A stretch of DNA of 64,000 bases from a bacterium (GTDB lineage Bacteria; UBA8248), in assembly GCA_965203325.1 (NCBI GenBank), contig OZ241875.1, positions 3,808,001 through 3,872,000 of the forward strand, given 5' to 3'. Under the pieces are notes generated by a model. That model ran no database searches and was not told the DNA's origin. It worked only from the letters and a program-made list of their open reading frames with translations. Positions 36,191-52,980 of the stretch are shown here, one piece after another; position 1 is the stretch's first letter, and each line of letters starts with the position of its first letter. The translations under genes and the position numbers were made by a program.

Positions 36191-39100
36191 TTGCACGACT
36201 CAATCCGTGAGCTTCAATCAATTTTTCTTGAAGCAGACTCCGCTTGTCTTGAACGTTTGGCCGCCCATGCTCTCGGCTCTTTGCTCGGTGTACCCGTTCG
36301 GGTTGCCCGCTCCGGCGACCAGAGGGGTGGAGATGGTGGCACTTCAGGCATCGATGGCCGTGAACTCGTCTTCGAAACGCGTCGCTACAGTGACAAAACA
36401 AGGATTGACGAGCGCGGCATTCTCGGGGAGATCGAACAAGCAATAGACAGAAAGCCAGATCTTGAAGCCTGGATTCTGGTGACCACAAGGGAGGTTCGCG
36501 AACAAACCGAACAGGCGATGACACGGGCGGGACTGAAAAACGGGGTGGCTACGGTCATTATTGATTGGCTACAACAACCGTTGCCGAAACTTGCTGCACT
36601 CGCTGCCAGTTGTCCGGAGTGTTTCAGGGCCGAGATTGGTGAAGGGTATGATCATCTTCTGACAGATATCGCTGCGATGCAGGGATACAAAAGGACGCTA
36701 AATGCCATCGAATCTGAACTCAATGGCTGGTTATTAGGTTACCAGGCAGTTCGTGACGCAAGTCATGCTCAAGTACGGGAGATTTGGGAATCACGTCAAA
36801 AAGCCAACGCAAGATTCGGGCAAAACGTAGCCGGTGGCACGAAAGAAGCGCACCACGTTCGCCGATCCGGACTGATAGATCGTCTGGATGCTTGGTCTAA
36901 AGCCGCCACTGGCGGCGAAGTGGGTGCATTGGTCGGTCTTGACGGCATGGGCAAGACCTGGGTTGCTATCGATTGGCTTCAGTCGAGACTTAATCAGCTA
37001 CCGATAATTGTACTCGTTCCCTCATCCGCGCTCGGAAACGGGATTGCCAGTCGCACCGATCTAATCAGGTTTATCGCACGCTATCTGCACGATATATCAG
37101 GAGTGCGCAACGAACCGTTCTGGGAGCAACGTGTTCGTCGGCTTTTGGCGCGTCCTCCGGAAGAGGGGCCCGCTTTCTTCCTGTTCTTCGACGGCCTTAA
37201 CCAGCTTTCATCTTTTGACTGGCTTGGAATTTTCCGCCAACTCGAAGATGAGCCTTTTTACAAACGAACTCTTACTTTAATTTCCTCGCGCACTAGTTTC
37301 TACGAAGAGCGTTTGAACAAATTACGCGCTCTGGTTGCAAATCCGGTTCGTATCGATATTGGCAAATACCATCTGGCACCCGACGGCACTTTTGACCAGA
37401 AATTGGAACTAGCTGGCCTGTCCCGCGAGGAACTGTCCGATGAACTGATCGAACATGCGGCAGTGCCGCGATTATTCGACTTGGTAATTCAACTAAAAGA
37501 CTCCCTTGGCGATATTTCCGCAGTGACTGTAAATCGTCTTCTCTGGGCTTATGGTGCATCGACCGATGGCGCATTCAGTGAGGATGACTGGCGGCGGTTT
37601 ATCATAGAACTTGCCAAAGAGCATCAGGACGCCAATCGGGTCTCCACGGTTCAACGCGTCACGGATTTGAGCGAAGATGCGACCCTGACGCCGGATCGCA
37701 TATATCAACGTGTCTCTAGCGTGATCGACGGCATCTTCACGGAACTCAGCGGAGAAGGTGAACTCCATTTCCAAGAGGATTTTGTACACCACGCTTTAGG
37801 TCTTGCTTTGGTGAAGCGCATGGAGCAGACCGAGTCTGACGAAGACGTCACAACTGTTCTTGAAAAATTTCTCGACCCCATTGCGGGCTATGACGCCCGA
37901 GCTGAAACCCTTCGCGCTGCCGTAAACATTACACTTCTGCGAAGTACTCCCCAACAACCGAAATGGCTGAGTACGCTATGCACTTTCTGGATCCAGACAC
38001 AGAACCTGCCCGACGAACATATAAAGGAATTGGAAGTCTTCGCTCCGGAACTTGTCACGCCCTTACTGGATGTAATTGAAGCATCGTATGGACATGCGCT
38101 CACCACGCCGAGACATATTGGAATCAATGCGCTCGCCAGAGTAGAAAAAAGCAACGGGCTCGTTGCCCGGGAGATCGCCGAGCGTGGGGAACAGTGGCAC
38201 AGGTTCATTTCTCTCGAGAAGCACGGTACCGATCTCGGGGAAAACTCGTTCTACGCCTATCGATGCAAACGCCTCAAGGAACGCATAGGCGTAACCGAAC
38301 CAGGCCAAGTAACCGTCACAGGGCGGGTTTTCGAGATCGTGGACTATAGAGGTAATGACCTTATTATTGCGGCATCGCAGCTTCTCCAGGGACGTCCTCT
38401 AGCAGGAGCCATTCAATTCTTCGAAACAGGCGCAATTCATCATGCGATTGTCGGCGGCGGAACAGGACACGAATCCCAATCCTGGCTTAACACTCTCAAT
38501 ACGGTCGATCCGGTGGAAACGGCGGAAGGATTGAGGCGCGCATCGGAAATCGTGCATGAACGTACACCCGAACCTGAAGTTCATAGCGATCTCAACAAGC
38601 GGATTGCATCGCTTCTGCTTCAGTGGACCGGCTATGAAAATGATGACAAGGCGGCGCGGAAGATTGACCCGAAGATCGAGCACTTGCAGCGTTACGAGAC
38701 GGACTATCTGACTAATCCTTCTCGTTCTTTCTTCCGTCTTGAACGGCGGCACACTACTCTTGCGCTCTGCGACACCGAGCTCTCTATCATTCACAGGATC
38801 GGGCGGGCCAAGGACGCTTTGCTTGATCCAAGCTTTGAAGTTCCGCCGGGATTCGTTGATGAATTGATCTCAACTGGAGAAAGTTTTGATTTCTCACAGA
38901 CAGCCACCGGACGTGGTCATACGCGCCACGATCATGAATGGGAACTACTCTCTCTCGCATTTGCACGTTGTGCGCCTGAAAAACTTGCGGACCTCGAACG
39001 CAAGCGCCTGCTTGGTTTTGCCGACCGGCCCATAGATCAACAGTTCGGTTCGTCTCTCGTAGCGCCTGACGCCATGCTTCTCGCAGGAAAGGGAGAAAGC

Positions 39101-40828
39101 ACAGCCATTCAGACTTTACGGGAGCGGGGAGATAGAAGACGAGACAACGCCGAGTATACAACGCAGACCAGCTTCCTGATCTCGGAAATCCAATGCAAAC
39201 CGCCCTTAGAGCAGATCCGAAAGATAATGAAAGCGGAACTCGCTCATATCGACTGGTATTTAGCCGGTGCCTGTGATCCGCCTACTGAACATGAGATAGA
39301 TCTCCTCCTAGACGAGTACGGCGATGATGAAGAACAGCTAAGACGGCTTGCCAGTATCCTCGGTGCCCATGACCTGACCTTGAGCGCTCGCGCTTTTAAT
39401 ACCTTCTCCGACCTTTTGAAACCCGGTGCCACCGACCCCTCATCAGGGGCGGCTTGGGAGCTTTTGGCGTCGAACGAACCAGCGCGCCTGGGTGCCATGC
39501 TCGATAATGACGCCTGGAGTTGGTCGTACGAAAGACACATCATGGAAAATCTTATGGGCTCCGTTGCGATTGCTGAATCGAACCGGGGCACCCCGTTTAC
39601 GGAATATGCACAACGGGTCGCTCCAGCCCAGTTGCTCGAGACATTGTCGCAGGAAAAACGGTCGCGCGAAGATGTGGAACTTGCGGTCGAATTGTTGACT
39701 GGAGTTCTCTTCGGCGATTCCATAGATCCGCCGGAAGCCGGCGTCGCTATTTCTCACGAGCAGGAAAAGGTGCAATTGAGAACCTACCAATGCACCATTG
39801 GGGATGTATACGAGGAAGGAGAAAATCAGGAGAATTTCGTGCGTTTCGTTGAAAGATTCAATTCCCCCGAGAAACATGAAAAAAGAAGGCGCGAGATCGT
39901 CGATGCTTATTTGATTAAGGTCAAGGAAGCGAGACAGTCGGGCGCTCAACTCTATCTCGTGCATTTCACGGCAGATAATTTCGAACCCGTATTGAAACAC
40001 TGTCCAGACGCTGTCGAAACGTGGCTGGCAGGTCTCGAATCTTCGTCGCCGGACTTCATAAGGCGCGTTCGATTGGCGGAAGGATTTTTTGTAGCTCTGT
40101 GCGAGGCGCTTTTGAAGAAAGACCCACCACGCGGCATATCCCTGTGGCGTACCTTGAGGAAGTACCTGGTGACCAAATTCATTGGTCACGCCAATATCGA
40201 TAGATTGGTATATGCCCTGTTTACCGCAGCATCTCACGAAGAAGTGGACACCGCGCTGGAAGAAATTTACGGCATCAACGAAGCTCGAAGCGACGAAGAA
40301 CTGATAAATTTAGTCATAGCGGCTCGTTTGTCGGGTCGAAATGATTGGCTGCGGCGAATGGTGAGTCGTGACGCGGAGTCTTCCTGTCCGGTACATCGGC
40401 AAAGAGCAACCTTCCTGCAACCGTTGTTGACCCGGCCTGATATCGCCGGAGCCAAACATTGGCCCGAGGGTGAAGCCGCGAGCATATACGACTACATTCA
40501 CGAGACCTCTTGGATGCTAGCTCAACGTGAAGCCTTTGCCGCTCATTGGTTACAGAAATTTACCGAAGCGGACACGGTCGAGACTGCCCATGCATGCTGG
40601 CGCCTGTTCAAGGCTTGCGGTGATCGGCGCGCCTGGATTTGGAGGAGGAGCATATGTGAGTCTCACGCAACGCAGAATGAACTTTTGGAAACGGTCAAGA
40701 AAAAATTCATCGAACAAGAAGAACACAATCTGAAGAGCGCGATATCGGAAAACGAACGGTCCTGGTCCGATCATTTCGCGAGGCGCAGATACCCCAACTC
40801 ACTTGTGCCATGGCGTTCAACACCTTAG
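36191..40828 (+). CDS. Large restriction-endonuclease-like + STAND/NACHT NTPase protein (Avs-like defence candidate)
   Basis: N-terminal GDQRGGDG...VFETRRY; Walker A GLDGMGKT; Walker B FLFFDGLNQ; long helical C-terminus; 1545 aa. Confidence 0.7.
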   Translation: MHDSIRELQSIFLEADSACLERLAAHALGSLLGVPVRVARSGDQRGGDGGTSGIDGRELVFETRRYSDKTRIDERGILGEIEQAIDRKPDLEAWILVTTREVREQTEQAMTRAGLKNGVATVIIDWLQQPLPKLAALAASCPECFRAEIGEGYDHLLTDIAAMQGYKRTLNAIESELNGWLLGYQAVRDASHAQVREIWESRQKANARFGQNVAGGTKEAHHVRRSGLIDRLDAWSKAATGGEVGALVGLDGMGKTWVAIDWLQSRLNQLPIIVLVPSSALGNGIASRTDLIRFIARYLHDISGVRNEPFWEQRVRRLLARPPEEGPAFFLFFDGLNQLSSFDWLGIFRQLEDEPFYKRTLTLISSRTSFYEERLNKLRALVANPVRIDIGKYHLAPDGTFDQKLELAGLSREELSDELIEHAAVPRLFDLVIQLKDSLGDISAVTVNRLLWAYGASTDGAFSEDDWRRFIIELAKEHQDANRVSTVQRVTDLSEDATLTPDRIYQRVSSVIDGIFTELSGEGELHFQEDFVHHALGLALVKRMEQTESDEDVTTVLEKFLDPIAGYDARAETLRAAVNITLLRSTPQQPKWLSTLCTFWIQTQNLPDEHIKELEVFAPELVTPLLDVIEASYGHALTTPRHIGINALARVEKSNGLVAREIAERGEQWHRFISLEKHGTDLGENSFYAYRCKRLKERIGVTEPGQVTVTGRVFEIVDYRGNDLIIAASQLLQGRPLAGAIQFFETGAIHHAIVGGGTGHESQSWLNTLNTVDPVETAEGLRRASEIVHERTPEPEVHSDLNKRIASLLLQWTGYENDDKAARKIDPKIEHLQRYETDYLTNPSRSFFRLERRHTTLALCDTELSIIHRIGRAKDALLDPSFEVPPGFVDELISTGESFDFSQTATGRGHTRHDHEWELLSLAFARCAPEKLADLERKRLLGFADRPIDQQFGSSLVAPDAMLLAGKGESTAIQTLRERGDRRRDNAEYTTQTSFLISEIQCKPPLEQIRKIMKAELAHIDWYLAGACDPPTEHEIDLLLDEYGDDEEQLRRLASILGAHDLTLSARAFNTFSDLLKPGATDPSSGAAWELLASNEPARLGAMLDNDAWSWSYERHIMENLMGSVAIAESNRGTPFTEYAQRVAPAQLLETLSQEKRSREDVELAVELLTGVLFGDSIDPPEAGVAISHEQEKVQLRTYQCTIGDVYEEGENQENFVRFVERFNSPEKHEKRRREIVDAYLIKVKEARQSGAQLYLVHFTADNFEPVLKHCPDAVETWLAGLESSSPDFIRRVRLAEGFFVALCEALLKKDPPRGISLWRTLRKYLVTKFIGHANIDRLVYALFTAASHEEVDTALEEIYGINEARSDEELINLVIAARLSGRNDWLRRMVSRDAESSCPVHRQRATFLQPLLTRPDIAGAKHWPEGEAASIYDYIHETSWMLAQREAFAAHWLQKFTEADTVETAHACWRLFKACGDRRAWIWRRSICESHATQNELLETVKKKFIEQEEHNLKSAISENERSWSDHFARRRYPNSLVPWRSTP

Positions 40829-40829
40829 G

Positions 40830-41160
40830 CTCGTTGGTGTCTGGCCATCCTGAATCCAGCGGCCCTCCTGCCGTGTTTTTTTCGTCTATCCCATCGATGA
40901 ACCTCACGTCGGCCAGATGACGGAAGCTGCGTAGCCGGTGCCATCGATTCTCAGCGCTCATGGCGAACTGATGCACGAGACTCAGCGCCGTCTTCTCGCT
41001 CAGGCAGTTCCTGGTCTTCGCCGTTCGCAACTGGATGATGGCGAAGGTTGACTCGATAGGGTTCGTCGTCCGCAGACTCCGCCAGTGCGCTGCCGGGAAG
41101 TAGTAGAAGGCGAGCAACTCCTCCCCGAATGCCACTGCCATAGCCTTCCTCCTTGCTTTC
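40830..41160 (-). pseudogene. IS256-family transposase 3' remnant
   Basis: ELLAFYYFPAAHWRSLRTTNPIESTFA...RT.KT.NCLS; homologous to 47730-48010. Confidence 0.85.
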
Positions 41161-41193
41161 GCATGATTCTCGCTGGCTCGTTCCCCAGTTAGG

Positions 41194-42681
41194 CTAAGAC
41201 ACCACGCCATATTTCTCTCGAAAAGCCTCGACATAGTCTTTGTCCTGACAGATACAATTACCTTTAGAGTCTTTAGCGACTGGATACACTTGAAACCGTT
41301 CCTGCGGCTTGAGTACGTCGAGTTGCGCGATTGTGCTGTGTTCCGGTTCACTCTGACCCAGCCTCACCGCAGCGGCAGCGAGCAGGACGCCGGCCAAGGC
41401 GGACTGGTGGGCTAGTGGGACATGAACATCATCGGCGGGAACACCGATTTCATCCAGCGCAATTACGGCACCACCGCAAAAGCCCTCCGAATACAGATCA
41501 CGCAACGACCGGCCCTCGAAGGGCAAGAGTTTCTCGAGCGCAACGCCGCGCGCTACCGCTATCGCCTCCAGCAAACTCCTTGTTGCACCCTCTTTCTTGT
41601 GAAGCATGTTCCGTACCTCCATCAACTGGTCCGAAACGCCAAACGACTCGGCAATGATTACATCCTCGCTTCTTTGCTGACCATTCGGCTGGTACAGGCA
41701 GTTCACGCACGCACCGTTCGTGAAGTTGTGGACGGATACACCCAAGTCACCTGGCTGAGTCCATGCGTTGGCGATGCGACGGGGCAACGATGCCTGCGCT
41801 GCGCGACGATCATTCGCCGAGTCCAATGCCAAAAGGAGGACATCAGTCCTGCAACTTTCCCTCTCGAGGAATTCTGCCAAGCTGCATCCGTATGCTTCAG
41901 CTTTCAGTGGGCCGGCGAACTTTGCGGCCAAGAACTCTGCCTTAGGCTTGTTCTCTGCGTCTCGTTCGGCCAATACGTAGCGTTGAAGATTGCCTAGGTC
42001 GATCGATTCGTTATCCACAATCTCGATTGCTCCACTAACCTGAGCGCGAGACAGGGCCCAAGCTGTCGCGTTGCCGACGGCACCCGCGCCGGCGAGAACA
42101 AGGCGGCCAACGTCGCCCTTGACGTTGGGGTCGTCCGCAGCCGAGCCACATTCAACCGGAATTGCTAACTCCAGATCATGTTCGAGTTCAACTCCCTGCA
42201 AGTACAGGTGCCTGAACACATCCGCAGCAGCTAGACACGCCGCTAGTCCTGCACCAAACGGGTTATTGCTTTCCCCGCACATCTGCGGGTTACTACTCGA
42301 CAGTTTTGCAGTCCACCCGCTACAACCCACGAAAAGAGTTCGGGGCGCCTTCCGTATTCCGCTCACCGAACCAACGACCACCTCTACCGTCGGCGTCTGC
42401 GACAAGTCGACCCTTGGATTCACTCGCCTCGCCAACTCGGCAGCTTCGCGGCCAGCGCCGCCATTCGACTCATCACGAACCGCTATTGCCGGATACAGAC
42501 GAGCGAACAGCCGTACTAGGAGGTCTACGGCTGCACGACCCTCACTTCCGCTAGCGCTTGACCCTAGGGTCACCCCGACGCATACGTCTCCCAACATCGC
42601 CTCTAGACGCTTTTCGTCCAAACCGGAGATAGCTTGTGCAATAGCAACGGCGTTGCGTCGAAAGTAGTCAGGTGTTGCCAC
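41194..42681 (-). CDS. bilD: E1-like ThiF/MoeB ubiquitin-activating enzyme (type II Bil BilD-like)
   Basis: LAGAGAVG, D..NLQRY, ALDS, Zn ligands CVNC and CIC, candidate catalytic Cys in GFCGG. Confidence 0.8.
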   Translation of the reverse strand: MATPDYFRRNAVAIAQAISGLDEKRLEAMLGDVCVGVTLGSSASGSEGRAAVDLLVRLFARLYPAIAVRDESNGGAGREAAELARRVNPRVDLSQTPTVEVVVGSVSGIRKAPRTLFVGCSGWTAKLSSSNPQMCGESNNPFGAGLAACLAAADVFRHLYLQGVELEHDLELAIPVECGSAADDPNVKGDVGRLVLAGAGAVGNATAWALSRAQVSGAIEIVDNESIDLGNLQRYVLAERDAENKPKAEFLAAKFAGPLKAEAYGCSLAEFLERESCRTDVLLLALDSANDRRAAQASLPRRIANAWTQPGDLGVSVHNFTNGACVNCLYQPNGQQRSEDVIIAESFGVSDQLMEVRNMLHKKEGATRSLLEAIAVARGVALEKLLPFEGRSLRDLYSEGFCGGAVIALDEIGVPADDVHVPLAHQSALAGVLLAAAAVRLGQSEPEHSTIAQLDVLKPQERFQVYPVAKDSKGNCICQDKDYVEAFREKYGVVS

Positions 42682-42684
42682 GGA

Positions 42685-43170
42685 TCACCCCTCCATTTGC
42701 AGGATGTGCCGAGAATCAGTTGGTGATAGCTCCTCCCATCCATCACGGGACAAACGATATAGCGCGGTATCAGGTCCTCTCACGCCGTACCGGCAGAAGT
42801 CCGGAACCACCAAGGACAAGCCGCCAAGCGTGGTCACCATTGGAAACGCGTCATCCGTATCCGAGTGAAAAGCTTCGGTCGGGTGGGAGTGCACTTGTAC
42901 CGCAAGCCATTCGCCATTCTCGTACAACCACCGATTTAGTCGATCGAGCTCATCCCCCTCCACACAAACACAAAGTCCACTCGCGAATTGGTAAGCGGTT
43001 TGACGGGGATTATGAAACGTCCTGACAAGAAAGCGCTCCTTATCGATAACGCCGCTCCACAGCACGAAATGCTCATTCCGGCCAAGTCCTGCTTCGCGTA
43101 GTACTCGGTCTGTCTCATCACAGATGTGTTCCGGAACAATGAACTCGCAGATTGAACTGAAGGTCTTCAT
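42685..43170 (-). CDS. bilC: JAB/JAMM metallopeptidase (BilC-like)
   Basis: E..VLW...QVHSHPTEAFHSDTDD JAMM motif. Confidence 0.85.
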   Translation of the reverse strand: MKTFSSICEFIVPEHICDETDRVLREAGLGRNEHFVLWSGVIDKERFLVRTFHNPRQTAYQFASGLCVCVEGDELDRLNRWLYENGEWLAVQVHSHPTEAFHSDTDDAFPMVTTLGGLSLVVPDFCRYGVRGPDTALYRLSRDGWEELSPTDSRHILQMEG

Positions 43171-43775
43171 TCTGGTGCCACGCCGAAGTGGAACCCCACC
43201 TGCGGGATCATTTGCACATTGAATCCTACGATTGGTTCCAAGCCGTACTTGGAAACGATTTCCAATAGCCGTATTAGTCGCCCACCACCAGAGGGTCGAT
43301 ACAGTTCCCAGTGGTCTCCGCTATGCGCCGGGTGCTCGTGATACTCCCGGACGCCTGCAACACAAAGAAACGGGATGTCTTCCGGCCCGTACGCTTGCAT
43401 GAGTGGTTGCTGCGGCTGCACGTGCAATTGCACGTTTCCCTGGATCATTGCCGGCGCTTCGCTCCCTGGAAGTGACCGCAGCAACGGCGTGGGTAACTCG
43501 TCACTTCTGTACGGCACACAGGTCAACGGATGCACGAGCCGTACCGAGGGCGGTGCTGCGTCATAGTTCGTGTAGTCGAACCATACCCCGCACACGATCG
43601 CGATTGGTTGCGTCTTCGCAGTTGCGAGAATCACCAGCGCACACGGGAAGTCAGCTCGGACGAGAAACCATCCGCGGCGTCCATACTCTTCGGCCTGCGA
43701 CCGGAATTCGGCTATCTCTCGGTCGAATTTCCGGCGAGAGACAGCTGGGTCTACGAACTGCGCCTTATCCCACAC
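43167..43775 (-). CDS. bilB: Prokaryotic E2-like conjugating protein (BilB-like)
   Basis: DYTNYDAAPPSVRLV and PFLCVAGVREYHEHPAHSGDHW with a candidate catalytic Cys; lies between the Ubl and JAB genes. Confidence 0.78.
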   Translation of the reverse strand: MWDKAQFVDPAVSRRKFDREIAEFRSQAEEYGRRGWFLVRADFPCALVILATAKTQPIAIVCGVWFDYTNYDAAPPSVRLVHPLTCVPYRSDELPTPLLRSLPGSEAPAMIQGNVQLHVQPQQPLMQAYGPEDIPFLCVAGVREYHEHPAHSGDHWELYRPSGGGRLIRLLEIVSKYGLEPIVGFNVQMIPQVGFHFGVAPE

Positions 43776-44034
43776 AGCTGCCGCCCACGCCGGCTTTCAG
43801 GTTCAGAAATAACGTCGCCCCTTCCTTAATGCCGGATTGCGATATCTTTGTCCCCATGTCTATGATGGTTCCAGAACCGTCCCGAAGTTCCCAATTTTCT
43901 ATCGGTTGGCCCGAATTGCCCGACTCCTCCAGTGCTTTCGCAGCGGCTTCCCGGAACTCCCACCCTAAGTGGGCCGCCACAGGAACCGGCTGTCCATTGA
44001 CGATGAATTTCAGATCAACGTAATTGTCGCTCAT
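43765..44034 (-). CDS. bilA: Ubiquitin-like protein (DUF2604 / BilA-like)
   Basis: IVNGQP...ALEESGNSGQPIENWELRD..G...LFLNLKAGVGG plus a 4-aa extension; AGGAGG RBS. Confidence 0.82.
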   Translation of the reverse strand: MSDNYVDLKFIVNGQPVPVAAHLGWEFREAAAKALEESGNSGQPIENWELRDGSGTIIDMGTKISQSGIKEGATLFLNLKAGVGGSCVG

Positions 44035-44111
44035 CACGATTTCCTCCTAGATGATGTTCAAGGTGCTCAAGTTGCACACGTCGTACACGTTGCACACGTC
44101 GTACTGTGGGT

Positions 44112-44140
44112 ATTATGCACACTTGCCGCCTCGATTTCAA
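44112..44140 (-). promoter_or_regulatory. Sigma70-type promoter of the bil operon
   Basis: Minus strand TTGAAA-N17-CATAAT, about 75 bp upstream of bilA. Confidence 0.6.
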
Positions 44141-44469
44141 GAGGGAGGCGCAATGGCCGTCAGATTTCGTGGTCGCGACCCCACAACCGTCCCGGATCCC
44201 ACGACGACACTGCACGGACAGACCCCGCTGCAACAAACGCCCTGCGTTCGCCAGAACGGTCCGTTAGGGCGCATGCACAGGGGACCTCGACTGAACCAGA
44301 TGCAGCAACGCTAGAAGCGTCGGTGCCGTGACCGATCACAGGCTCTGTAATGAAAACAAAACCGCTGCTGATAAGAACGATGCGCCCCGTTTCCGCGTCC
44401 GCGATTTCTTGGGCACGGCGTGGCGGTTCCCGCTCACAGTCGGCCACCTGCGCGCTCTTCACCGTAACC

Positions 44470-45112
44470 CTGCTGGAAAGACGACAGAGCGCTCCGGTTC
44501 GACCCCTACACCTACATTCCCGTCCAGAAGGGCTTCCCGTACCTGGTGGCGGTGATGGACTGGACCATCCGCCGAGTGCTCTCCTTCAGACTCTCCAACA
44601 CCCTCGATGCCCGCTTCAGCACCGATACCCTCACAGATGCCTTGGAGCGCTACGACCCCCTCGAGAAATTTAACACTGACCAAGGCAGTCAATTCATTAG
44701 CCTAAAGTTCATCTCCGTGCTCAAGGACTCCGATGTTGCCATCTCCATGGACCGCACGGGCCGGTGAATGGACAACATCTTCATCGAGCGTCTGTGGCAC
44801 TCCCTCAAGTACGAGGCCGTCTACCTGCATGAGCTCTCGGACGGCTTCCAACCCAAGGAGGTGATTTCCCGGTGGGTGGCGTTTTACAACTACCAGCGCC
44901 ATCACTCGGCCTTGGGGCGTTCCGCCCCTGCCGAGGCCTACGACCGTGGGCTGCCGGCAGATACCCGCAAGAAACCTTTTCGCTCCACCCCCTCTCTCCC
45001 GCTTCCACCGGAACATGACGATGTGTTAAACAGAACCATGGCGGCATGACTTGCTATCCGAAATATACCTTGTTTTTGCCGCCATCCTGTCCTACGATTC
45101 AGAATCACCTCA
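44470..45112 (+). pseudogene. IS3-family OrfB remnant with right end
   Basis: YLVAVMDW..R.VLS, FNTDQGSQF, ISMD..GR*MDNIFIERLW.SLKYE, YN..RHHSALG; ends ...CACCTCA. Confidence 0.85.
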
Positions 45113-45137
45113 CTATTCCGTAGGAGGAAAACGGCAA

Positions 45138-45857
45138 ATGTCCGACGCAGTCAATTTTGACGTCAAATTCGTACCCGCCGGCACGGGACCGGCCGTCTGG
45201 GACGACCCTTACGCCGACCATGTCGTCCACCGGTTCATGCCCCCGGAGCGTAAGCATCCCCCGATGCTCGGCGTCATTCACATGGACGCCGTTCGCCCGA
45301 CCCCGGCGGTCCTGCGAAATGTCGTCGTGACCCTTGCCGAAGATGTAAAAGCAGGCCGATACGGTAGCTGCTCTTTGTTCATTTGCAGCCAGGACGAGGA
45401 CACGCGAAGCGTGATCGGCGATATTGCCGCATCCCAAAACATTGCGGTGTTCCTATGCTCCACTTACTCAGACCTCAAGTATGCGGAACCTGTTGGTGTT
45501 TTGACTGCCAAGGAGCACGAAACTCTCAGTCTAGTCTTCGAAGCCGGTGGGACCGTAAACGCATTGGACCTTGCCAAGCAGATCGGTATCGAGAAAACGG
45601 CTGCGAGCAACCGGTTGGTCTCGCTTCAGAAGAAGGGATTTGTCCTACGTGTCGAGCGTCCACATCCCGCCGGGGACCTTTTCGTTGATCCCCGCGCGCT
45701 CATCGGAGGGGAGACCGAAGCGGGCCCCCAGCTGGACAGCAGGGCGCTGGTCCCTAACCGCACCACCGTCGAGGCCATCGAGGCGGCGCGTCGGGGCGAC
45801 GTCGTGGAACTCGGCAGTCCGGCGGATGCGCTCGCCGATCTCAATAGCGACGATTGA
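45138..45857 (+). CDS. STAS-like + winged-HTH regulator (CapS-like) with a C-terminal DinJ/RelB-like antitoxin tail
   Basis: AGGAGG RBS; wHTH NALDLAKQIGIEKTAASNRLVSLQKKGFVLR; tail PNRTTVEAIEAARRG...ALADLNSDD; N-terminal alpha/beta domain assigned by inference. Confidence 0.6.
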   Translation: MSDAVNFDVKFVPAGTGPAVWDDPYADHVVHRFMPPERKHPPMLGVIHMDAVRPTPAVLRNVVVTLAEDVKAGRYGSCSLFICSQDEDTRSVIGDIAASQNIAVFLCSTYSDLKYAEPVGVLTAKEHETLSLVFEAGGTVNALDLAKQIGIEKTAASNRLVSLQKKGFVLRVERPHPAGDLFVDPRALIGGETEAGPQLDSRALVPNRTTVEAIEAARRGDVVELGSPADALADLNSDD

Positions 45858-45872
45858 AGAATCCGGTCGGCT

Positions 45873-46172
45873 GTGGCCAGGAACCAGAAAGTCCGTACGG
45901 TCAAACGAACCGCTCAGTTCAAGAGAGATTTCAAACGTGCCAAGCGTGGCGTGCACGGCAGTCATCTTGACGAGACCCTTCTCGAAGCACTCGAACTGCT
46001 GGCGGCGGATGCGCCGCTACCAGATCGCTACGTCGACCATCAGATGAAAGGTCAGTTCAAAGACTGCCGGGACTGCCATCTGCGACCCGACCTCGTGTTG
46101 ATCTACCGAAAACGGGATTCCGACGTTCTGGAACTAGTTCGGCTCGGGTCCCACGCACAACTCGCGATCTGA
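45873..46172 (+). CDS. yafQ: YafQ-family (RelE superfamily) mRNA interferase toxin
   Basis: RTAQFKRDFKR...YVDHQMKG...RDCHLRPDLVLIY...LVRLGSH. Confidence 0.9.
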   Translation: MARNQKVRTVKRTAQFKRDFKRAKRGVHGSHLDETLLEALELLAADAPLPDRYVDHQMKGQFKDCRDCHLRPDLVLIYRKRDSDVLELVRLGSHAQLAI

Positions 46173-46177
46173 GAACA

Positions 46178-46335
46178 CCCGAACACATGCACTGACAGGG
46201 CAACTCCGGGCTACGCGAGAGTTTGAATTCATCCGCTTCCGATTTGATTACGTATTGCAGATAGGTAAATCCCCAACGAAGCTTAGAAAAACAAATACCT
46301 GCAACAGTTTCAACAAATTACAAGGATTTTTCGGC
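46178..46335. repeat. att-like dispersed repeat, copy 1
   Basis: GGCTACGC..GTTTG.ATTC..CCGCTTCCG.TTTGATTAC...AAATCCCCAACGAA...AACAGTTTCAACAAA.TACAAGGA shared with the copy at 51040-51200. Confidence 0.75.
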
Positions 46336-46402
46336 TGTTGGAAAATCCCCATTGCCTGTAAACGGGCATATAGCACGAATGAACGCACCTAAGGGACGGC
46401 AT

Positions 46403-46648
46403 TCATTCTTTTAAACGATATCTCCCAGGACCTTCCTTGATGAATCGCTCTTCTCCTTCGAATTTACTAGATGATTTGCAATACCTGGAAATAGTGCCTC
46501 TCACAGTTGCTTTAAATTCTTTGGGAATGTTTATCCTTTCTTCCTTACATATTTTGAGAACTTCATCGTAAATTTCCTTAAGGTCCGCTACTAGTTTTAA
46601 CCTACGAAGTGCTTTTGCAATAATAATTGCCCACTTGACCCAACTCAT
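46403..46648 (-). CDS. Small winged-helix (HARE-HTH-like) protein
   Basis: W..IIAKAL......LKEIYDEV...FKATVRGTISRY...F...GPGRYRL; AAAGGA RBS. Confidence 0.55.
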   Translation of the reverse strand: MSWVKWAIIIAKALRRLKLVADLKEIYDEVLKICKEERINIPKEFKATVRGTISRYCKSSSKFEGEERFIKEGPGRYRLKE

Positions 46649-46692
46649 TTTCGTCCTTTCTTTATGGGAAAAAGAAAACCCCCGACCGAAGC

Positions 46693-48036
46693 GAGTTACT
46701 CTCAGATCTAGTTTATGGCCTGAATTGAAGAAGGCGGCACATTCCTGCTGAACCAGTGTTGTCAGAAGCCCGTACATTCAGCACATAGGAAATGCTCCAC
46801 CATACACAAAGATACGACGCTTCCCTTTACGAATCCAGCCTTTCGAAACGAGTTGAGCGAACTGGTGCGCGAGGGCGCGCAGCGAATCATCCGCCAAGCT
46901 GTGAAAGCGGAGTTGGAGGCCTTTCAGGAAGAGCATTCTACCAAGCAAGACACGCGAGGCCGTCGCAGGAGGTTTTGGCGGGTGTCGGTCCAGTGCGGTT
47001 TCGTGTTCCCCGGACGCGGGACAGGAGCGGGGCGGGCCGGTGTTTCCGCTCGGAGTTGTTGCCGCCGTATTTGAAGAATACGAGGCGGGTGGAGGCGGTT
47101 TTACCGTGGCTGTACCTGAAGGGGATATCGACGATCGACTTCGGTGAGGCGCTCACGGCGCTGCTCGGTGAGTCGGTGAAGGGTTTGTCTGCGGTTACGA
47201 TTGCGCGGCTCAAGGGCGGCTGGGAGCGCGACTACACGCAGTGGCGCGAGCGGGACTGGTGCGGGGAGGAGTTCGTGTATCTGTGGGCGGACTGCATCTA
47301 CGTGAACGTGCGCAGCGGGGAGCAACGTTGTCTACTGGTGGTTGTGGGCTGCCACGCGCGTGGCCACAAGCACTTCCTGGCCCTGGAGGCAGGGTTCCGT
47401 GAATCGAAGGAGAGTTGGAAGGCGGTGTTGTTGAGTTTGCGGGACCGGGGCGTGAAGGCGGCGAAGCTGGCGGTGGGCGACAGAGGGCTGGGGTTCTGGT
47501 CGGCACTGGCCGAGATGTATCCCGAGACGCGGGCGCAGCGCTGCTGGGTACACAAGACAGCGAACGTGCTCGAGAAGTTTCCCAAACGCATTCAGGACGA
47601 AGCGAAGACGATGCTGCACGAGATATGGCGGGGCCAACACCCGGATGAATGCACACAAGGCGCTCACACGCTTCCTCGCCATTTGGGAGGCGAAGTACCC
47701 GAAAGCCGCCGAATCCCTGGCGAGGTACCAGGAGGAACTGCTCGTCTTCTACGACTTCCCGGCGGCGCACTGGCAAAGCCTCCGGACGCCGAACCCCATC
47801 GAGTTGACCTTCGCCACGATACGTTTGCGAACGGCGAAGACCAAGAATTGTCTGAGCGAGAAGACGGCGCTGAGCATGGTTCACAAACTCGCCATAAGCG
47901 CCGAGAAGCGATGGTGCCGGCTACGCGGCTTTCGTCATCTGACCGACGTGAGGTTCATCAATGGGGTGAACGAAAAAGAACGGGCAGGAGGACCGCTGGC
48001 TTCAGGACGGCCATACACAAGATTTGACCGTAACTC
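46693..48036 (+). mobile_element. IS256-family element with a frameshifted transposase
   Basis: Imperfect TIR GAGTTACTCTCAGATCTAGT / ACAAGATTTGACCGTAACTC; LYLKGIST, QRCWVHK, RTPNPIE spread over three reading frames. Confidence 0.88.
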
Positions 48037-48040
48037 ACCA

Positions 48041-50458
48041 TCAATCTTTTGGTGCCATAGCTATACTAGTTTCGATGCGACGTTCGTAGTAGGCGATTTG
48101 TCGACTGATATCGGGATCTCCTACATTTTCTTCGGCTGTTTTCATTTTTTGTATCGCATCGTTAAATGTATCCAAATCTTTCTTTCGTTTGAATATTTCA
48201 ATTCCAATGTCACAGTAAGTAGATAACATATGCTTGTTTCCTGGATACCTATTCACACCGCTCACCGCTAATTCTCGTGCTCGATCAAGAATTACTAGAC
48301 GATCTTCATCCATAAGACCAGGCGCGTTTTTCGCACGCTCAAGAAAAAGGATTATCCGGTAGCGGTACACTGGCCCATCTTCACCAAAATCCTTGGAAAA
48401 AAGTCTAATCTCAGCTTCCGCTTCCTCAAATTGCCTCATGTCAATTAGGTTCTGAATCAAACGATGACGTGGTACTCTTTCCCCTGGAGCAACGGAGATC
48501 ATTTTTGCGAGCAAGCGATTTTGCTTGTGGCGATCTGCTATACGTCGGATACCAGTATTAACGCTGCAGAGTTGACGAAGTGTTCTCACTTCTATGTCAT
48601 AAATTGGATTAAGTGCACTAATAACCTGTTCGTATAAGTCAAAATAATTTTCCGTTTCGGCAAATTTATAATCGGCTATTATTTCCATGATTACACCGTG
48701 ACGCCCTCGCCAGCCGTAAATACCATCCCGCTCATTGACCACATACTCGCGGACGATTCCGTCCAAATGATCGAGAACAGCTGATATAGTTGTCATGTTT
48801 ATTCCTAATAAGCGAATTATCAACTGCCTGTGGACTCGTATTCCAGAACTTTCGAGTGCAGCCACGATCTTGTATATATCTTGATATTCTGAAGCGAGTA
48901 ATGCGTACTCACGCAAAAGAATGTCATCGAATTTCTCGGTCGCAAAAATGTTTTTAAGGCAGACAAACACATCTCGCTCACACCGTTCTTCAAGGCGGCG
49001 GCGCTGCTCTCCGGCAGAGAAATCCAGAAAGCTAGTATGAACGAGTTCTCGAACTGGAGTGCTGGTCTCAACCAACCGCAAAAGTTCAGTGATTTCATTC
49101 GCATTTAATTTTTCTAGCTCATAAATTTTTGAATTCGAGAATAATGCCGCTGATTTTATTCGGTGGTTCCAGCGATTTCGAGCTGACGAAACAACCACTC
49201 TTAAGTTCTTTATATCTGCGGCCGAAAGGGACTCAAACAAAATGTTGATTTCATGTAAGTGGCTATCACTGTCATCAATAAAGATAGCGCCATTTTTTCC
49301 TTCTTTCTCCAAATTCTTAGCTACATTAAGCCATTCATTGTGAAGAAGTTTATGATCTGACTTGTGTTCCCATAAATAGAAATTTCTCTTGGCTAAACTG
49401 TGCATGATTTGGCGCGCTGTAGTGGTTTTTCCAACGCCACCTGCTCCTAAAATAATTACTCCAAAGTGTTCGTTTTCGATAAGTTGCTTTTCTGCAATCT
49501 GTACTAAAGATCGCATGAACGTATTTCCAGAGGCTATGTCGCCGTAACTAGCCGGCCACCCGTTAAACATTTCACTTACGCGTGGAGGAAGTTGCGAACT
49601 ATGATGTACGTCTATTGTAATTGGAGAGAGGTAACGAGAGGCATCAAGCGGATCACTAGATTCTTCATATGCCGTGACTAAGTCAGGACCATGTTTAGTG
49701 AGGGATGCCGCAAATTCATCAATCCCAGCAAAGCACACTTTGAGTCCACGGATTTCATGCAGTTCAGCCCTTTCTTTGTTGGGAGTGTACATAAAAAGGT
49801 AAGTTGAACGGATGTTCATTGCCTGTTTACTGATAGATAATGCACGATTTACAATCTCTCTGATATATGGATCTGCCAAGGAATATCCGATAATAATTAA
49901 ATCCGCCCCTGCCAAATCTCGTTTTAATGAATCATAAAGATATTCTCGATATTCTTCGGTCAAGCTATAATCATTCTCGGTAATAATTAGCCGTGTCTTA
50001 CTTCCATCAGAAACGTCTTCTTCAATGCTGCCATGCAGTTTCATAAGCCGTAGTGAATTAGGCAACTTATCGGCATCGAAATCAAAATTTGATGCGTATA
50101 CTGCCAATGGTTCATTAAATCGCCCAAACGCTTGCTCAAGTAAATTGTCATAATTTGTTGTATAAATACTCTTCCATTTGAAGCGCGGAATAGTGAGTAA
50201 ACCACCAGTAGGCTCAATCCCAACAAAGAGTTCGCGCACGGCCTTAATCAAGTCCACTCGATTTCGACGTCTCTCTATAATGGCTGAAAGTTCGGGCAGA
50301 TTCAGGTCACTCGATTCGAGATCAAAATGTTGGGCAAGATGGTCACAGATTTGCATTGTACTTGGGGCACCAGATGGGATTGAAGAACCAGAGCCAAAAA
50401 GGAGTACTGTTTGTTCTGGATTGATTTCACTAACTAGTTGATCAATGGGAATTGGCAT
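48041..50458 (-). CDS. SIR2-like NADase + STAND NTPase + helical sensor (Avs5-like) defence protein
   Basis: LLFGSGSS, IYTTNYD, KLHGS, IIGYSLAD; Walker A GAGGVGKT; Walker B IFIDD; AT-rich. Confidence 0.8.
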   Translation of the reverse strand: MPIPIDQLVSEINPEQTVLLFGSGSSIPSGAPSTMQICDHLAQHFDLESSDLNLPELSAIIERRRNRVDLIKAVRELFVGIEPTGGLLTIPRFKWKSIYTTNYDNLLEQAFGRFNEPLAVYASNFDFDADKLPNSLRLMKLHGSIEEDVSDGSKTRLIITENDYSLTEEYREYLYDSLKRDLAGADLIIIGYSLADPYIREIVNRALSISKQAMNIRSTYLFMYTPNKERAELHEIRGLKVCFAGIDEFAASLTKHGPDLVTAYEESSDPLDASRYLSPITIDVHHSSQLPPRVSEMFNGWPASYGDIASGNTFMRSLVQIAEKQLIENEHFGVIILGAGGVGKTTTARQIMHSLAKRNFYLWEHKSDHKLLHNEWLNVAKNLEKEGKNGAIFIDDSDSHLHEINILFESLSAADIKNLRVVVSSARNRWNHRIKSAALFSNSKIYELEKLNANEITELLRLVETSTPVRELVHTSFLDFSAGEQRRRLEERCERDVFVCLKNIFATEKFDDILLREYALLASEYQDIYKIVAALESSGIRVHRQLIIRLLGINMTTISAVLDHLDGIVREYVVNERDGIYGWRGRHGVIMEIIADYKFAETENYFDLYEQVISALNPIYDIEVRTLRQLCSVNTGIRRIADRHKQNRLLAKMISVAPGERVPRHRLIQNLIDMRQFEEAEAEIRLFSKDFGEDGPVYRYRIILFLERAKNAPGLMDEDRLVILDRARELAVSGVNRYPGNKHMLSTYCDIGIEIFKRKKDLDTFNDAIQKMKTAEENVGDPDISRQIAYYERRIETSIAMAPKD

Positions 50459-50678
50459 TCTAGTTGTTGTCCTTTTATCCTCGTGCCCACGCCTAGAATA
50501 GAAAAAGGGGATTGAAGTACGTGTGCAAGTTGCTTCTTCATTCAATGCCCATCATCAATTTAATCCATTTTCAAACCAAGTCCAAGTCACACCGTTATTT
50601 GCCATTTTTTGGTTTCACATGCCAATTCAATTGAGCAAGTGATGTATATAATTCCCTAAATTTTTCTTAGTCAATGGA

Positions 50679-50760
50679 ATGGCCGAGAGCTTCTTCGCCA
50701 CGCTGGAGTAAAAACTCATCGATCGAAGTTCGTTCTACACTTAGGCCGAAGCGCGTATAA
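50679..50760 (+). pseudogene. Tiny IS3-family transposase fragment
   Basis: MAESFFATLE*KLIDRSSF.T*AEAR. Confidence 0.6.
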
Positions 50761-50955
50761 GGGTATCCACACTGCTAGCCTCGTGTCTCGTTTATAAGTT
50801 CATCGTCGCTGTGATCGACTACGCCGCACGTGCGAATGAGAAGCGAACCCTTGGTGCCTGAATGAACGTTGCCAGACACTGGAACGTAGTCATGATTAAG
50901 CCGCTTCGAGCTGGATTTTAGAGGTCGATCCGACAGAAGTATACGTTCGGTCGCG

Positions 50956-51240
50956 GGGTGATGAGCATCAAAAATCCACCGACCCAAACCGGATACCACG
51001 TGCCATACCAACAACTGCCTCTGAGTCTTGCTGCATTATCACCCCACCAGCGAACGGTTACCGACAGAAACGTACCAGGCTACGCAGAAGTTTGGATTCG
51101 CCCGCTTCCGTTTTGATTACTTATTACAGAAAACAAATCCCCAACGAAACTCGCAAAAAACAAACTATCCATAACAGTTTCAACAAACTACAAGGACTCC
51201 ACCCCCGCTGAAAACCCCCCACCGCCTGAAAACACGCGAA
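50956..51240. repeat. att-like dispersed repeat, copy 2
   Basis: 50956-51063 matches 63377-63487; 51078-51197 matches 46209-46326. Confidence 0.8.
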
Positions 51241-51458
51241 ATCTCTTGTCGATGTCGGTTCCACCGGAAGGACTCCCGCGGCCGTACACGCCACCACGGC
51301 ACCGACGCACGGCGACCCCGCCCGCTGCACCACCTGGCCGATAATGCGAGTGCCGCAGTATCGTCGTTCACCCTAGGGATGCGCAGGTTCGCGTGCTCCT
51401 CGCCCTGGGCGTTACGATGCGTCACACGGAAAGGGTTGCCGACCTCCGCTGACCATCC

Positions 51459-51770
51459 CTACCAGCGCATGGTTCCGCGCAGCGCAACCCCGACTACGGG
51501 TTCATCGCTGTTATCTGTCTCGCGCAAGTTGCCCTCGATGCTCATGGTAAGATGTCGCCCGAGCCTGAAGCGTCCGACGGCGCGGTACGTCCGGCCGCCC
51601 TACGATACCGAGAGGCCGCCATAGGGCGTTAGCACACATCGGTAGGCGTCCAGGCCGTAGCCGACTTCCGCTTCTAGACTCGCGCCGGGGTCGAACGCCC
51701 CTCGGGAGAGGCCCGCCACTTGCACCGAGCAGAGGCGCTCCGCACTGTCAGAAACCGCGCCCAAGCGGTC
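51459..51770 (-). pseudogene. Autotransporter beta-domain C-terminal remnant
   Basis: Reads SAERLCS..GLSRGAFDPGASLEAEVGYGLDA..LTPYGG..*...LRGTMRW*, paralogous to the C-terminus of 56465..61399. Confidence 0.75.
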
Positions 51771-51822
51771 CACCTATTGTGGCTTTCAGGCCCGGCTATT
51801 CGACAGGGACTCGATTTGGTCC

Positions 51823-52980
51823 TCATCCATTGAGGATCTGACCAATGTTTTCACCTTCGAACCAATGAATTTCATTCTTATGCGCTTTCGCGTGCCGCAA
51901 CCGATACAGAACCTCCGGTAGATTCGTATCCCTCGCGAACGGATTGACGTATAAACAGTTGTGTACGTGATGCAAGTTCCACGGAGCGAGGTCCCGAAAC
52001 ATCAAGACGGCGGAAAGCCGTTTGTAGCGCGGTTGGTATCCGCCCCGGATCCAGACTGCGTCCGGCTCACGACCAAGTTCCGGCGAGAGATCAGGGCGGC
52101 CTTCGAAATAGACGATCTGCTCTTTGCCGAACAACGTCTCCAATTCATCGTCTTTATCAAAAAAGGGATCGCATATATTCACCGCCACCACAAGCGGCGC
52201 ATCAAGTTGGCCGTATTTACTTGCCTTATCCAGTATTGCATGCCGAACTGGAGTGGAGTCGTCGGTTACTTCAGTGCGAGCGGGGCCTTTGACGAGCGGT
52301 CGGGACTTGCCATCACCTCGCTTGCCAGGAGCTATCGGTTCAAGCCATCCTCTCAAGCTCCAGGATCCGGACTGAATCGTTCGAAAAGGCGCGGCAAATG
52401 GCCCTGCCACGTCAATCAGGCGTTGAACTTCGTCAGGGTCGTGGGCCGCAAGCAGGTCGATGAACGGCTGAACCACTTGTTTCCGGCTCAAGGCGGTCGA
52501 TAGCTTCCCCTCTACTTGCGTAAAGATATGGAAGTGCGGAGAACTCAGGCTATTGATTTTCGCCACAACGTCTTCTTCCAGTGGATTGCGGGCAAAAGGA
52601 CTCGAGCTGAGATCAATGGCTTTTGTTTCAACATAGAAAGTAAAGTCGCCGTGACGAACCAAAAAGTCCGGTCGCGAGCCCGTGCAGGAAACGTCGGGAT
52701 GCACCTTCACCTTACAATCTAAGCGAGTGAGCAATTCATGGATGAATAATTCAAAAATTGATCCTCGATGACCTCGATCATCTTTTGCGCGAAACCTTCC
52801 CCGAACATCATCGCGAGCCTCGACCGGGAATCGCTGAAACCACGATTCGAGTCGAGCGCGAATCTCGGTTGCCTTGTGATGCGCAGATCGGTTCAGATAT
52901 GAAAAAAACCTTTCATTTTTTTGTCTTGAACTCGTGTCTGTTCGCTTTATGTCATCGAAGAGAGAGAGGCGAGTGGTCAT
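51823..52980 (-). CDS. Hypothetical protein with a PD-(D/E)xK-like motif
   Basis: FELFIHELL...RPDFLV....FYVETK. Confidence 0.6.
   Translation of the reverse strand: MTTRLSLFDDIKRTDTSSRQKNERFFSYLNRSAHHKATEIRARLESWFQRFPVEARDDVRGRFRAKDDRGHRGSIFELFIHELLTRLDCKVKVHPDVSCTGSRPDFLVRHGDFTFYVETKAIDLSSSPFARNPLEEDVVAKINSLSSPHFHIFTQVEGKLSTALSRKQVVQPFIDLLAAHDPDEVQRLIDVAGPFAAPFRTIQSGSWSLRGWLEPIAPGKRGDGKSRPLVKGPARTEVTDDSTPVRHAILDKASKYGQLDAPLVVAVNICDPFFDKDDELETLFGKEQIVYFEGRPDLSPELGREPDAVWIRGGYQPRYKRLSAVLMFRDLAPWNLHHVHNCLYVNPFARDTNLPEVLYRLRHAKAHKNEIHWFEGENIGQILNG

Follow-up and report, generated by a model that had tools for sequence, protein, structure and literature searches.

Introduction

Among the described systems closest to the locus reported here is CapS, which comprises a STAS domain (residues 1 to 111) followed by a winged helix-turn-helix (residues 112 to 184), carries a conserved phospho-acceptor serine (Ser54) at the start of the second STAS helix and, in the authors' survey, is invariably preceded by a capK gene (Chambers et al., EMBO J 2026, PMC13373217). 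The same report describes VapS, the STAS protein of the VapKSC system, whose short C-terminal region is required for its action as an antitoxin to the adjacent RNase, in that deletion of the region abolishes protection. Bil operons, along with CBASS and Bub operons, are regulated by CapH plus CapP and by CapW, and CapH/CapP accompany 25 of 162 Type II BilABCD operons (PMC10557695, PMC13373217). Type II BilABCD operons (CEHH/6C) encode, in this order, a ubiquitin-like protein, a CEHH-type E2, a JAB deubiquitinase and a multidomain E1, the CEHH protein being equated with the E2 BilB (PMC10557695). In the current study, we analyzed a 64,000-nucleotide stretch of a bacterial genome (GTDB lineage Bacteria; UBA8248; assembly GCA_965203325.1, contig OZ241875.1, positions 3,808,001 to 3,872,000; the window), in which one gene, located between a Type II Bil operon and a yafQ toxin gene, joins a regulator of STAS-like and winged-helix architecture to the toxin-binding end of a DinJ antitoxin.

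We consider it likely that the 239-residue product of this gene is a bifunctional repressor-antitoxin, whose core represses the bilA promoter and whose DinJ-type tail neutralizes YafQ. In the literature that we searched, we found no description of such a fusion or of a kinase-less STAS and winged-helix regulator of Type II Bil operons; the supplementary tables of PMC13373217 and PMC10557695 lay outside that search and could list such loci.

Results

Domain organization of the fusion protein

The fusion gene (45138..45857, plus strand) encodes 239 residues plus a stop codon, and a GGAGG motif stands 9 nt before its ATG. An earlier reading of this DNA, made without database searches (the sequence-only reading), had proposed that it encodes a STAS-like domain, a winged helix and a DinJ-type tail ahead of an intact yafQ gene, with no separate dinJ in view and a Bil operon as its neighbor. 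All of these elements were recovered in our searches, the STAS-like domain by its predicted fold. The sole significant Pfam match of the protein is to the MarR winged helix (residues 122 to 175; E value of 9.6e-6, 25.8 bits against a cutoff of 24.6), within a winged-helix domain that spans residues 122 to 190 (45501..45707). A full-length model built on 34 homologues (predicted local distance difference test [pLDDT] 76.7) consists of an alpha/beta N-terminal domain, the winged helix (pLDDT 90 to 94), a disordered stretch and two short helices in the tail. The linker between core and tail (residues 191 to 203; 45708..45746) is predicted to be disordered, with pLDDT values below 50 at residues 191 to 204, and its columns vary in the homologue alignment.

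The N-terminal domain (residues 1 to 120; 45138..45497) has no Pfam match and was assigned through its predicted fold. When a domain-only model of residues 1 to 121 (22 sequences, pLDDT 78.7) was compared exhaustively with 48,161 chains (VIA-align wide), STAS domains occupied 19 of the 20 top rows, at Z scores of 9.1 to 6.8. The best row was 4xs5_A (Z 9.1, root mean square deviation [rmsd] 2.8, 102 aligned residues); SpoIIAA (1tid_B) followed at Z 8.6, and RsbS, RsbV and the STAS domains of SLC26 proteins were also represented. The best background Z in such comparisons is typically 7 to 8, a level that 9.1 exceeds only modestly, and it is the uniformity of the list rather than the absolute Z that makes a STAS-like fold of the modeled domain persuasive. 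A profile of the N-terminal domain alone collected 89 representative clusters; 64 of these were scanned with Pfam, and in most of them a winged helix comes straight after the domain. An Atlas search with residues 1 to 121 scored just 0.79 and returned DUF4325 on 11% of one cluster, which we treat as a lead only.

A near-invariant Pro-Thr-Pro motif occupies residues 54 to 56, just ahead of the helix formed by residues 56 to 71, and Thr55 is kept in 34 of 34 sequences of the full-length alignment and in 21 of 22 of the N-terminal-domain alignment. The position would correspond to the site at which STAS proteins such as SpoIIAA are phosphorylated; the CapS report (PMC13373217) likewise places the phosphorylation there.

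The DinJ-type tail and its origin

The tail, predicted to bind YafQ, comprises residues 204 to 239 (45747..45854). Residues 196 to 239 are 75 to 86% identical to 16 shorter proteins, several of which are 85-residue proteins with a precomputed assignment to PF04221, and the shared part is the C-terminal half of these stand-alone DinJ/RelB antitoxins. One of the short proteins, P0129, matches both Pfam RelB (E value of 2.2e-5; 24.7 bits, cutoff 22.4) and the E. coli DinJ chains 4ml0_A and 4q2u_A (1.6e-6), the latter in an alignment that extends through the tail motif. The ribbon-helix-helix N terminus typical of the PF04221 family is not present in the fusion protein, which has the STAS-like domain and the MarR winged helix instead. 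A metagenome scan seeded with the tail motif yielded 20 loci, all 20 of which match the regulator in the tail region alone, with the core unmatched, and 11 of which have a yafQ match directly downstream. In the two closest of the stand-alone pairs (L037 and L038), the tails are 78% and 71% identical and the adjacent YafQ proteins 76% and 80% identical to those of the window; tail and toxin therefore derive jointly from an ordinary dinJ-yafQ pair. With P0129 as the query, the whole genome from which the window derives gave a single match, the fusion itself, and 51 genomes of the phylum gave no stand-alone dinJ besides it. At the level of sequence, these comparisons show that, in one lineage, the regulator took the place of the ribbon-helix-helix head of DinJ.

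A separate observation concerns P0122 (99 residues, from a 514-bp contig). Over residues 40 to 99, it is 75% identical to residues 180 to 239 of the regulator, a span that takes in the last part of the core, the linker and the tail. Residues 1 to 39 are unrelated to the regulator and lack a Pfam match, so that P0122 represents either a further transfer of the tail, to a different head, or a gene call that is truncated.

YafQ and its predicted complex with the tail

The yafQ gene (45873..46172, plus strand; 99 residues, GTG start) begins 15 nt after the regulator stop at 45857. Its product matches Pfam YafQ_toxin (PF15738; E value of 1.5e-27, 96.2 bits, cutoff 30) and passes the cutoff of NCBIfam RelE_StbE (81.8 bits, cutoff 27.9), while its score against the stricter NCBIfam YafQ model, 70 bits, falls under the cutoff of 87.25. 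Solved toxins to which it is related include HP0892 (4.6e-16) and E. coli YafQ (4q2u_B; 7.5e-11). His56, His69 and His94 are invariant across 51 YafQ homologues, and the invariant His and Asp residues are all kept in the YafQ of the window.

Prediction of a complex between YafQ and residues 186 to 239 gave an interaction prediction score from aligned errors (ipSAE) of 0.88 (0.88, 0.87 and 0.89 in the individual runs), against 0.02 for the best control. That mark was attained for 116 of the 157 solved complexes and for 2 of the 215 mismatched pairs. Contacts agreed between runs to at least 93%, the partner pLDDT was at least 75, and the predicted interface brings tail residues 203 to 236 together with YafQ residues that include His94. 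We read this prediction as showing likeness to the known DinJ-YafQ interface.

In two metatranscriptome libraries, which come from two studies, we found contigs that map to the regulator. One spans 45116-45775 with 21 differences, and another, with 3 differences, spans 45812-46003 and thereby bridges the end of the regulator gene and the beginning of yafQ. These contigs give a weak hint of expression, as DNA may contaminate such libraries and contigs of this kind do not establish where transcription begins or that one transcript spans the region; stretches that they leave uncovered, including most of the bilA side, carry no information.

Conservation and history of the fusion

The regulator has 231 homologues, most of which are about 191 residues long and end where the linker starts. 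Among 121 sequences (the window protein and the 120 best homologue clusters), the tail is present in 21, down to 57% identity. In a tree of the common core, these 21 sequences form one bipartition (support of 0.998) with no tail-less sequence inside and no tailed sequence outside, which argues for a single fusion event followed by long persistence. At the level of genome loci, 29 were compared: 5 tailed, 23 tail-less, and one (L026) that is a frameshifted relic without yafQ. A yafQ match lies directly downstream in all five loci whose regulator reaches residue 238 or 239 (L001 to L004 and L018) and in 0 of the 23 tail-less loci. Regulator and yafQ are intact in L001 to L004, and both are truncated in L018.

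Within the phylum of the window, the DinJ-type tail was found in 1 of 51 genomes, namely, that of the window itself, and YafQ homologues elsewhere in this sample are distant only (34 to 49% identity, in five genus-mates). The closest loci, with regulators 83 to 89% identical, come from records titled as Bryobacterales or Terriglobia metagenome-assembled genomes. Given this distribution, the island that carries the locus looks horizontally acquired. Parts of 43700-46200, or close relatives of them, were also seen in contigs of marine, coral, sponge and biofilm metagenome runs (X3 to X11), four of which were aligned to the window in detail.

The Bil operon and its promoter region

On the minus strand, the regulator faces a four-gene operon with the order and content of Type II BilABCD (CEHH/6C). 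It consists of bilA (43765..44037), encoding the ubiquitin-like protein (Pfam DUF2604, 1.1e-22); bilB (43167..43775), encoding the CEHH-type E2 (Pfam Metal_CEHH, 1.5e-51; a weak PADLOC BilB match, 8.2e-4); bilC (42685..43170), encoding the JAB deubiquitinase (PADLOC BilC, 2.2e-12; Pfam Prok-JAB, 9.9e-4, below its cutoff); and bilD (41194..42681), encoding the multidomain E1 (Pfam Prok-E2_C, 7.8e-22, and ThiF, 7.2e-12; PADLOC BilD, 8.5e-14). Bil genes adjoin the regulator in 21 of the 29 loci, divergently in 19, and the record titles of these loci name Acidobacteriota, Gemmatimonadota, Proteobacteria, Actinobacteria and Chloroflexota. The tail-less 191-residue core is thus a dedicated neighbor of Type II Bil operons in several phyla. 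From this computed linkage, the core would appear to be their dedicated regulator, acting through DNA binding and repression.

The only sigma-70-like site in 43900-46500 is the bilA promoter (TTGAAA, 17 nt, CATAAT; 44112..44140, minus strand; 10 of 12 positions), and a TTGACA-17-CATAAT-like promoter lies upstream of bilA in every locus examined. Immediately after it, the loci carry an inverted repeat with a CCAC-N8-GTGG core, whose flanking bases covary between loci. Among inverted repeats of the 7+8+7 form, it ranks first in 11 of the 21 upstream regions. The putative operator of the window (44093..44109, minus strand) is a degenerate version (CCAC-N8-GTG core) that abuts the -10 box. A repressor seated here would be expected to cover both the -10 box and the start of transcription. 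An 18-bp tandem duplication (44071..44106) doubles the distal operator half-site; the segment is single copy in L001 and L002, and 18 nt are missing at 44071 from a DNA contig of run X4.

The insertion sequence remnant and the absence of capK

Between the bil promoter and the regulator leader lies a decayed insertion sequence (IS) remnant of about 0.9 kb (approximate bounds 44150..45053, plus strand; Pfam rve, rve_3 and rve_2, with integrase-core fragments at 44546-45049). The intergenic region of L002, which is uninterrupted and 295 bp long, served as the reference for the IS junctions. The right end of the insertion is common to L001, L003 and L004, and L001 has a longer decayed copy (L001:6137-8000). 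Downstream of the remnant, a conserved leader of about 85 nt (45054..45137, plus strand) is kept in the window and in L001 to L004, and it likely holds the regulator's own promoter.

The sequence-only reading had noted that no capK was visible and that an IS3 remnant occupied the place where one would be expected. As to the kinase, it was right: there is no kinase domain in the 19 nearest downstream open reading frames scanned and no adjacent CapK in any of the 29 loci, and the four HATPase_c_2 matches of the genome all lie outside the window. The significance that it gave to the remnant did not hold up. Loss of capK to the IS is ruled out, because the IS is an intergenic insertion common to the window, L001, L003 and L004, and because in the intact L002 and in 17 full-length tail-less loci, which are likewise without a kinase, the regulator sits directly beside the bil promoter or unrelated genes. 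The genes on the other side of the regulator, away from bil, are mutually unrelated (Mrr, XhoI, HNH, integrases, RadC and HSP20).

Two further loci differ in layout. L003 has its bil operon turned around with respect to the regulator. For L004, we considered whether the regulator-yafQ pair had become uncoupled from Bil; in that genome, bilD lies at the very start of another contig, and separation is no more likely than an assembly break.

Other features of the neighborhood

The segment at 46173-51822, between yafQ and the gene at 51823-52980, is partly of low G+C content (0.40 to 0.43 at 48000-50500) and contains a gene for a SIR2_2 plus nSTAND NTPase protein (48041-50545, minus strand) and fragments of a Mutator-family transposase (46792-48226). 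In L001, a homologue of the gene at 51823-52980 (59% identical) comes directly after yafQ, so that the segment has the appearance of another defense gene that was inserted or inverted at a later time. On the far side of the operon, a Mutator transposase fragment (40707-41351) flanks bilD, and just beyond it lies an open reading frame of 1,545 residues (36191-40828) without a Pfam match at an E value of 0.01 or lower and with a marginal PADLOC match to HEC-01B (6.3e-3).

A different C-terminal tail, mutually conserved, was seen in distant relatives of the regulator of about 240 to 250 residues (P0287, P0291, P0293, P0294, P0301, P0309, P0311, P0325 and P0334). In the actinobacterial locus L059:7653-9143 (G412:C4), a regulator with this second tail, of about 55 residues, is encoded divergently from a further Type II Bil operon, and 19 nt after it is an open reading frame of 161 residues with GNAT-like language-model features (0.96) and no Pfam, NCBIfam or PDB-sequence match. 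A search for more second-tail loci gave a match in 1 of 401 sampled genomes of that phylum and in 1 of 264 of that order, the same genome both times. The L059 arrangement may be a second pairing of regulator, tail and toxin, and we offer it as a lead only.

Discussion

Our preferred reading is that the fusion protein acts both as the repressor of bil and as the antidote of YafQ. In such a protein, the STAS-like domain would handle dimerization and sensing, and the core, likely as a dimer, would bind the inverted repeat at the bilA -10 box and repress the operon. We picture a dinJ-yafQ pair that landed downstream of the regulator in one lineage, whereupon DinJ lost its head, and a flexible linker came to connect its C-terminal half to the C terminus of the regulator. 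The tail would then wrap YafQ, a ribosome-dependent mRNA endonuclease, and hold it inactive. Removal or inactivation of the regulator would both raise bil transcription and free YafQ, and candidate triggers include proteolysis of the exposed linker and tail, arrest of regulator synthesis during phage shutoff, and modification of the conserved Thr55. DNA binding with repression, neutralization of YafQ and the joint derepression of bil and release of YafQ are all steps that we infer from the features described above.

A number of our results weigh against this reading, beginning with those that concern the N-terminal domain. The STAS assignment comes from a predicted model of limited confidence and a Z score not far above background (both given above); Foldseek with the N-terminal domain alone returned nothing at an E value of 0.001 or lower, and Pfam STAS is absent both from the 239-residue protein and from the 64 scanned clusters of distant relatives. 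In the Foldseek list for the full-length model, the top entries are Csa3 (a CARF domain plus a winged helix; E values of 3.6e-4 and 9.3e-4), ahead of MarR-family structures. The domain might accordingly be a ligand-sensing, Rossmann-like domain of the CARF/Csa3 type, which would be controlled by a small molecule, for instance a nucleotide signal, instead of by phosphorylation or partner switching, and the absence of a nearby kinase and weak matches to NCBIfam cas_HTH and PADLOC CasR/CARF3 would fit this. However, the Csa3 superposition has a template modeling score of 0.27 and an rmsd of 12, the weak family matches sit essentially on the winged helix (residues 122 to 175 and from about residue 110, respectively), and the domain-only model, with its almost uniform series of STAS domains, drew no CARF protein in the 50 VIA-align rows shown. 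We therefore regard a CARF-type sensor as improbable. On the DNA side, the tailed clade has a degenerate form of the inverted repeat, the single pattern match in the window compares with 1.41 expected by chance, and the per-locus shuffle statistics for the repeat are mostly weak. The IS remnant, moreover, stands between the regulator and the bil promoter, and a consensus scan of 43900-46500 found no sigma-70-like promoter for the regulator itself. As for the antitoxin half, the homology of the tail to DinJ is transitive, by way of the stand-alone antitoxins, there being no direct Pfam or NCBIfam RelB/DinJ match at an E value of 0.1 or lower in the fusion protein; and because DinJ-YafQ complexes have already been solved (4q2u and 4ml0), the high score of the predicted complex may reflect likeness and is no proof of binding. 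A decaying remnant, with a vestigial tail or an inactive yafQ, would be in keeping with the decayed copies in L018 and L026 and with the disruption of the window locus by the IS remnant. Yet both open reading frames are intact in the window and in L001 to L004, the family-invariant residues of YafQ are kept and 21 clusters retain the tail motif, and we consider decay very improbable. Virtually no weight attaches to an artifact of assembly or deletion unique to this contig, a possibility raised by the sequence-only reading, since four other assemblies (L001 to L004), 20 further protein clusters and contigs of independent sequencing runs rule it out.

The most serious rival grants that both halves are real and disputes that their union serves any purpose. 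A dinJ-yafQ addiction module, which as a toxin-antitoxin pair stabilizes the island or itself, would have been inserted behind the regulator, and a deletion would have fused the antidote half to it; the fusion would then be kept because its loss is lethal, and the two functions would have no meaningful common signal. We give such a selfish capture a real, if clearly smaller, chance of being correct. The adaptive logic of a joint release is indeed not self-evident, because translation arrest by YafQ would hinder, and if simultaneous would oppose, the synthesis of the Bil proteins. The fusion arose only once, in a mobile, IS-rich island, and is an accessory trait in the phylum; tail-less regulators serve Bil without a toxin in 23 loci. 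The tailed loci are close kin, so that their consistent association with yafQ amounts to one event and not to five. Furthermore, once fused to the regulator, a tail that is the antidote of an active toxin is held there by addiction, irrespective of any use that the coupling may have, and an antidote that is welded to a regulator cannot be lost, so that persistence alone is no proof of a useful coupling. Set against selfish capture, the tail motif has stayed intact although the tailed proteins have diverged to 57% identity, and, with the DinJ head gone, the winged helix would be the sole DNA-binding domain left for toxin-antitoxin autoregulation, which would make cross talk with bil hard to avoid. 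The distant relative with another conserved tail beside another Type II Bil operon also hints that tails recur on this scaffold.

A more speculative extension of the repressor-antitoxin reading is that STAS-like and winged-helix regulators of Type II Bil operons form a general scaffold that repeatedly gains toxin-neutralizing tails (the DinJ/YafQ tail here and the different tail of about 55 residues in L059). Loss or modification of one labile protein would then switch on ubiquitin-like tagging of phage and subsequently, unless the protein is replenished, a translation toxin as an abortive second layer; the toxin might also act as a corepressor that tunes bil. We think this generalization rather doubtful at present.

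The release and silencing of anti-phage systems are less well understood than the means by which these systems kill or block phage. Here, one polypeptide joins a Bil repressor, a STAS-type sensor without a visible kinase and the antidote of a ribosome-dependent RNase. Should both halves function as proposed, the transcription of an immune operon would be hard-wired to a toxin-antitoxin switch, and the locus would offer a simple system for testing toxin-antitoxin modules as backup or guard layers of other defenses. The analysis also defines a previously unnamed, kinase-less family of candidate regulators for Type II Bil operons, together with a candidate operator, and shows that the toxin-binding tails of antitoxins are transplantable onto regulators of unrelated systems.

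How the protein relates to CapS deserves comment, as the sequence-only reading had called it CapS-like. The plan, STAS and then winged helix, stood up; kinship in sequence was not shown, in that the family profile matches CapS (9z71_A, from E. roggenkampii) over the winged helix only and not significantly (E value of 0.52). The entry 9z71 was not among the fold-search results, for which the libraries comprised entries released up to 2026-04-08, its presence in them being unchecked. Judged against the description of CapS (PMC13373217), the two proteins share the order of their two domains at nearly the same size (residues 1 to 120 and 122 to 190 in our core), both are found next to immune operons that include Bil, and both are proposed to act on palindromic promoter operators. 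CapS also has a conserved hydroxyl residue, Ser54, just before the second STAS helix, a place that conserved Thr55 would hold in the model of our protein. In contrast to CapS, which has the gene for CapK (an HTH-STAS-GHKL kinase) immediately upstream and is itself upstream of its operon in the same direction, our regulator is divergent from the operon and has the bil promoter or the IS remnant in the place of the kinase gene; its Pro-Thr-Pro motif is likewise distinct, and CapS has no toxin-binding tail. We note the resemblance in plan and do not file the protein as a member of the CapS family.

The other comparisons are with systems that share one half of the arrangement. Like VapS, our protein is a STAS-domain protein with a C-terminal region and is encoded beside an RNase toxin gene. 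As described in PMC13373217, however, VapS has no DNA-binding domain, binds VapC mainly through its STAS domain and requires the kinase VapK, whereas here the toxin is a member of the RelE superfamily, YafQ, the tail was transplanted from DinJ and there is no kinase. With CapH plus CapP and with CapW, the regulator has in common that it is encoded divergently from Type II BilABCD across a common promoter region; these proteins belong to unrelated families, and their systems have no toxin-antitoxin component. Finally, the DinJ-YafQ pair has the same toxin family, a homologous C-terminal toxin-binding segment, the same order of antitoxin and toxin genes and a similarly short gap between them, but where DinJ carries a ribbon-helix-helix domain for DNA binding and dimerization, the protein described here carries a 190-residue STAS-like and winged-helix regulator of another system.

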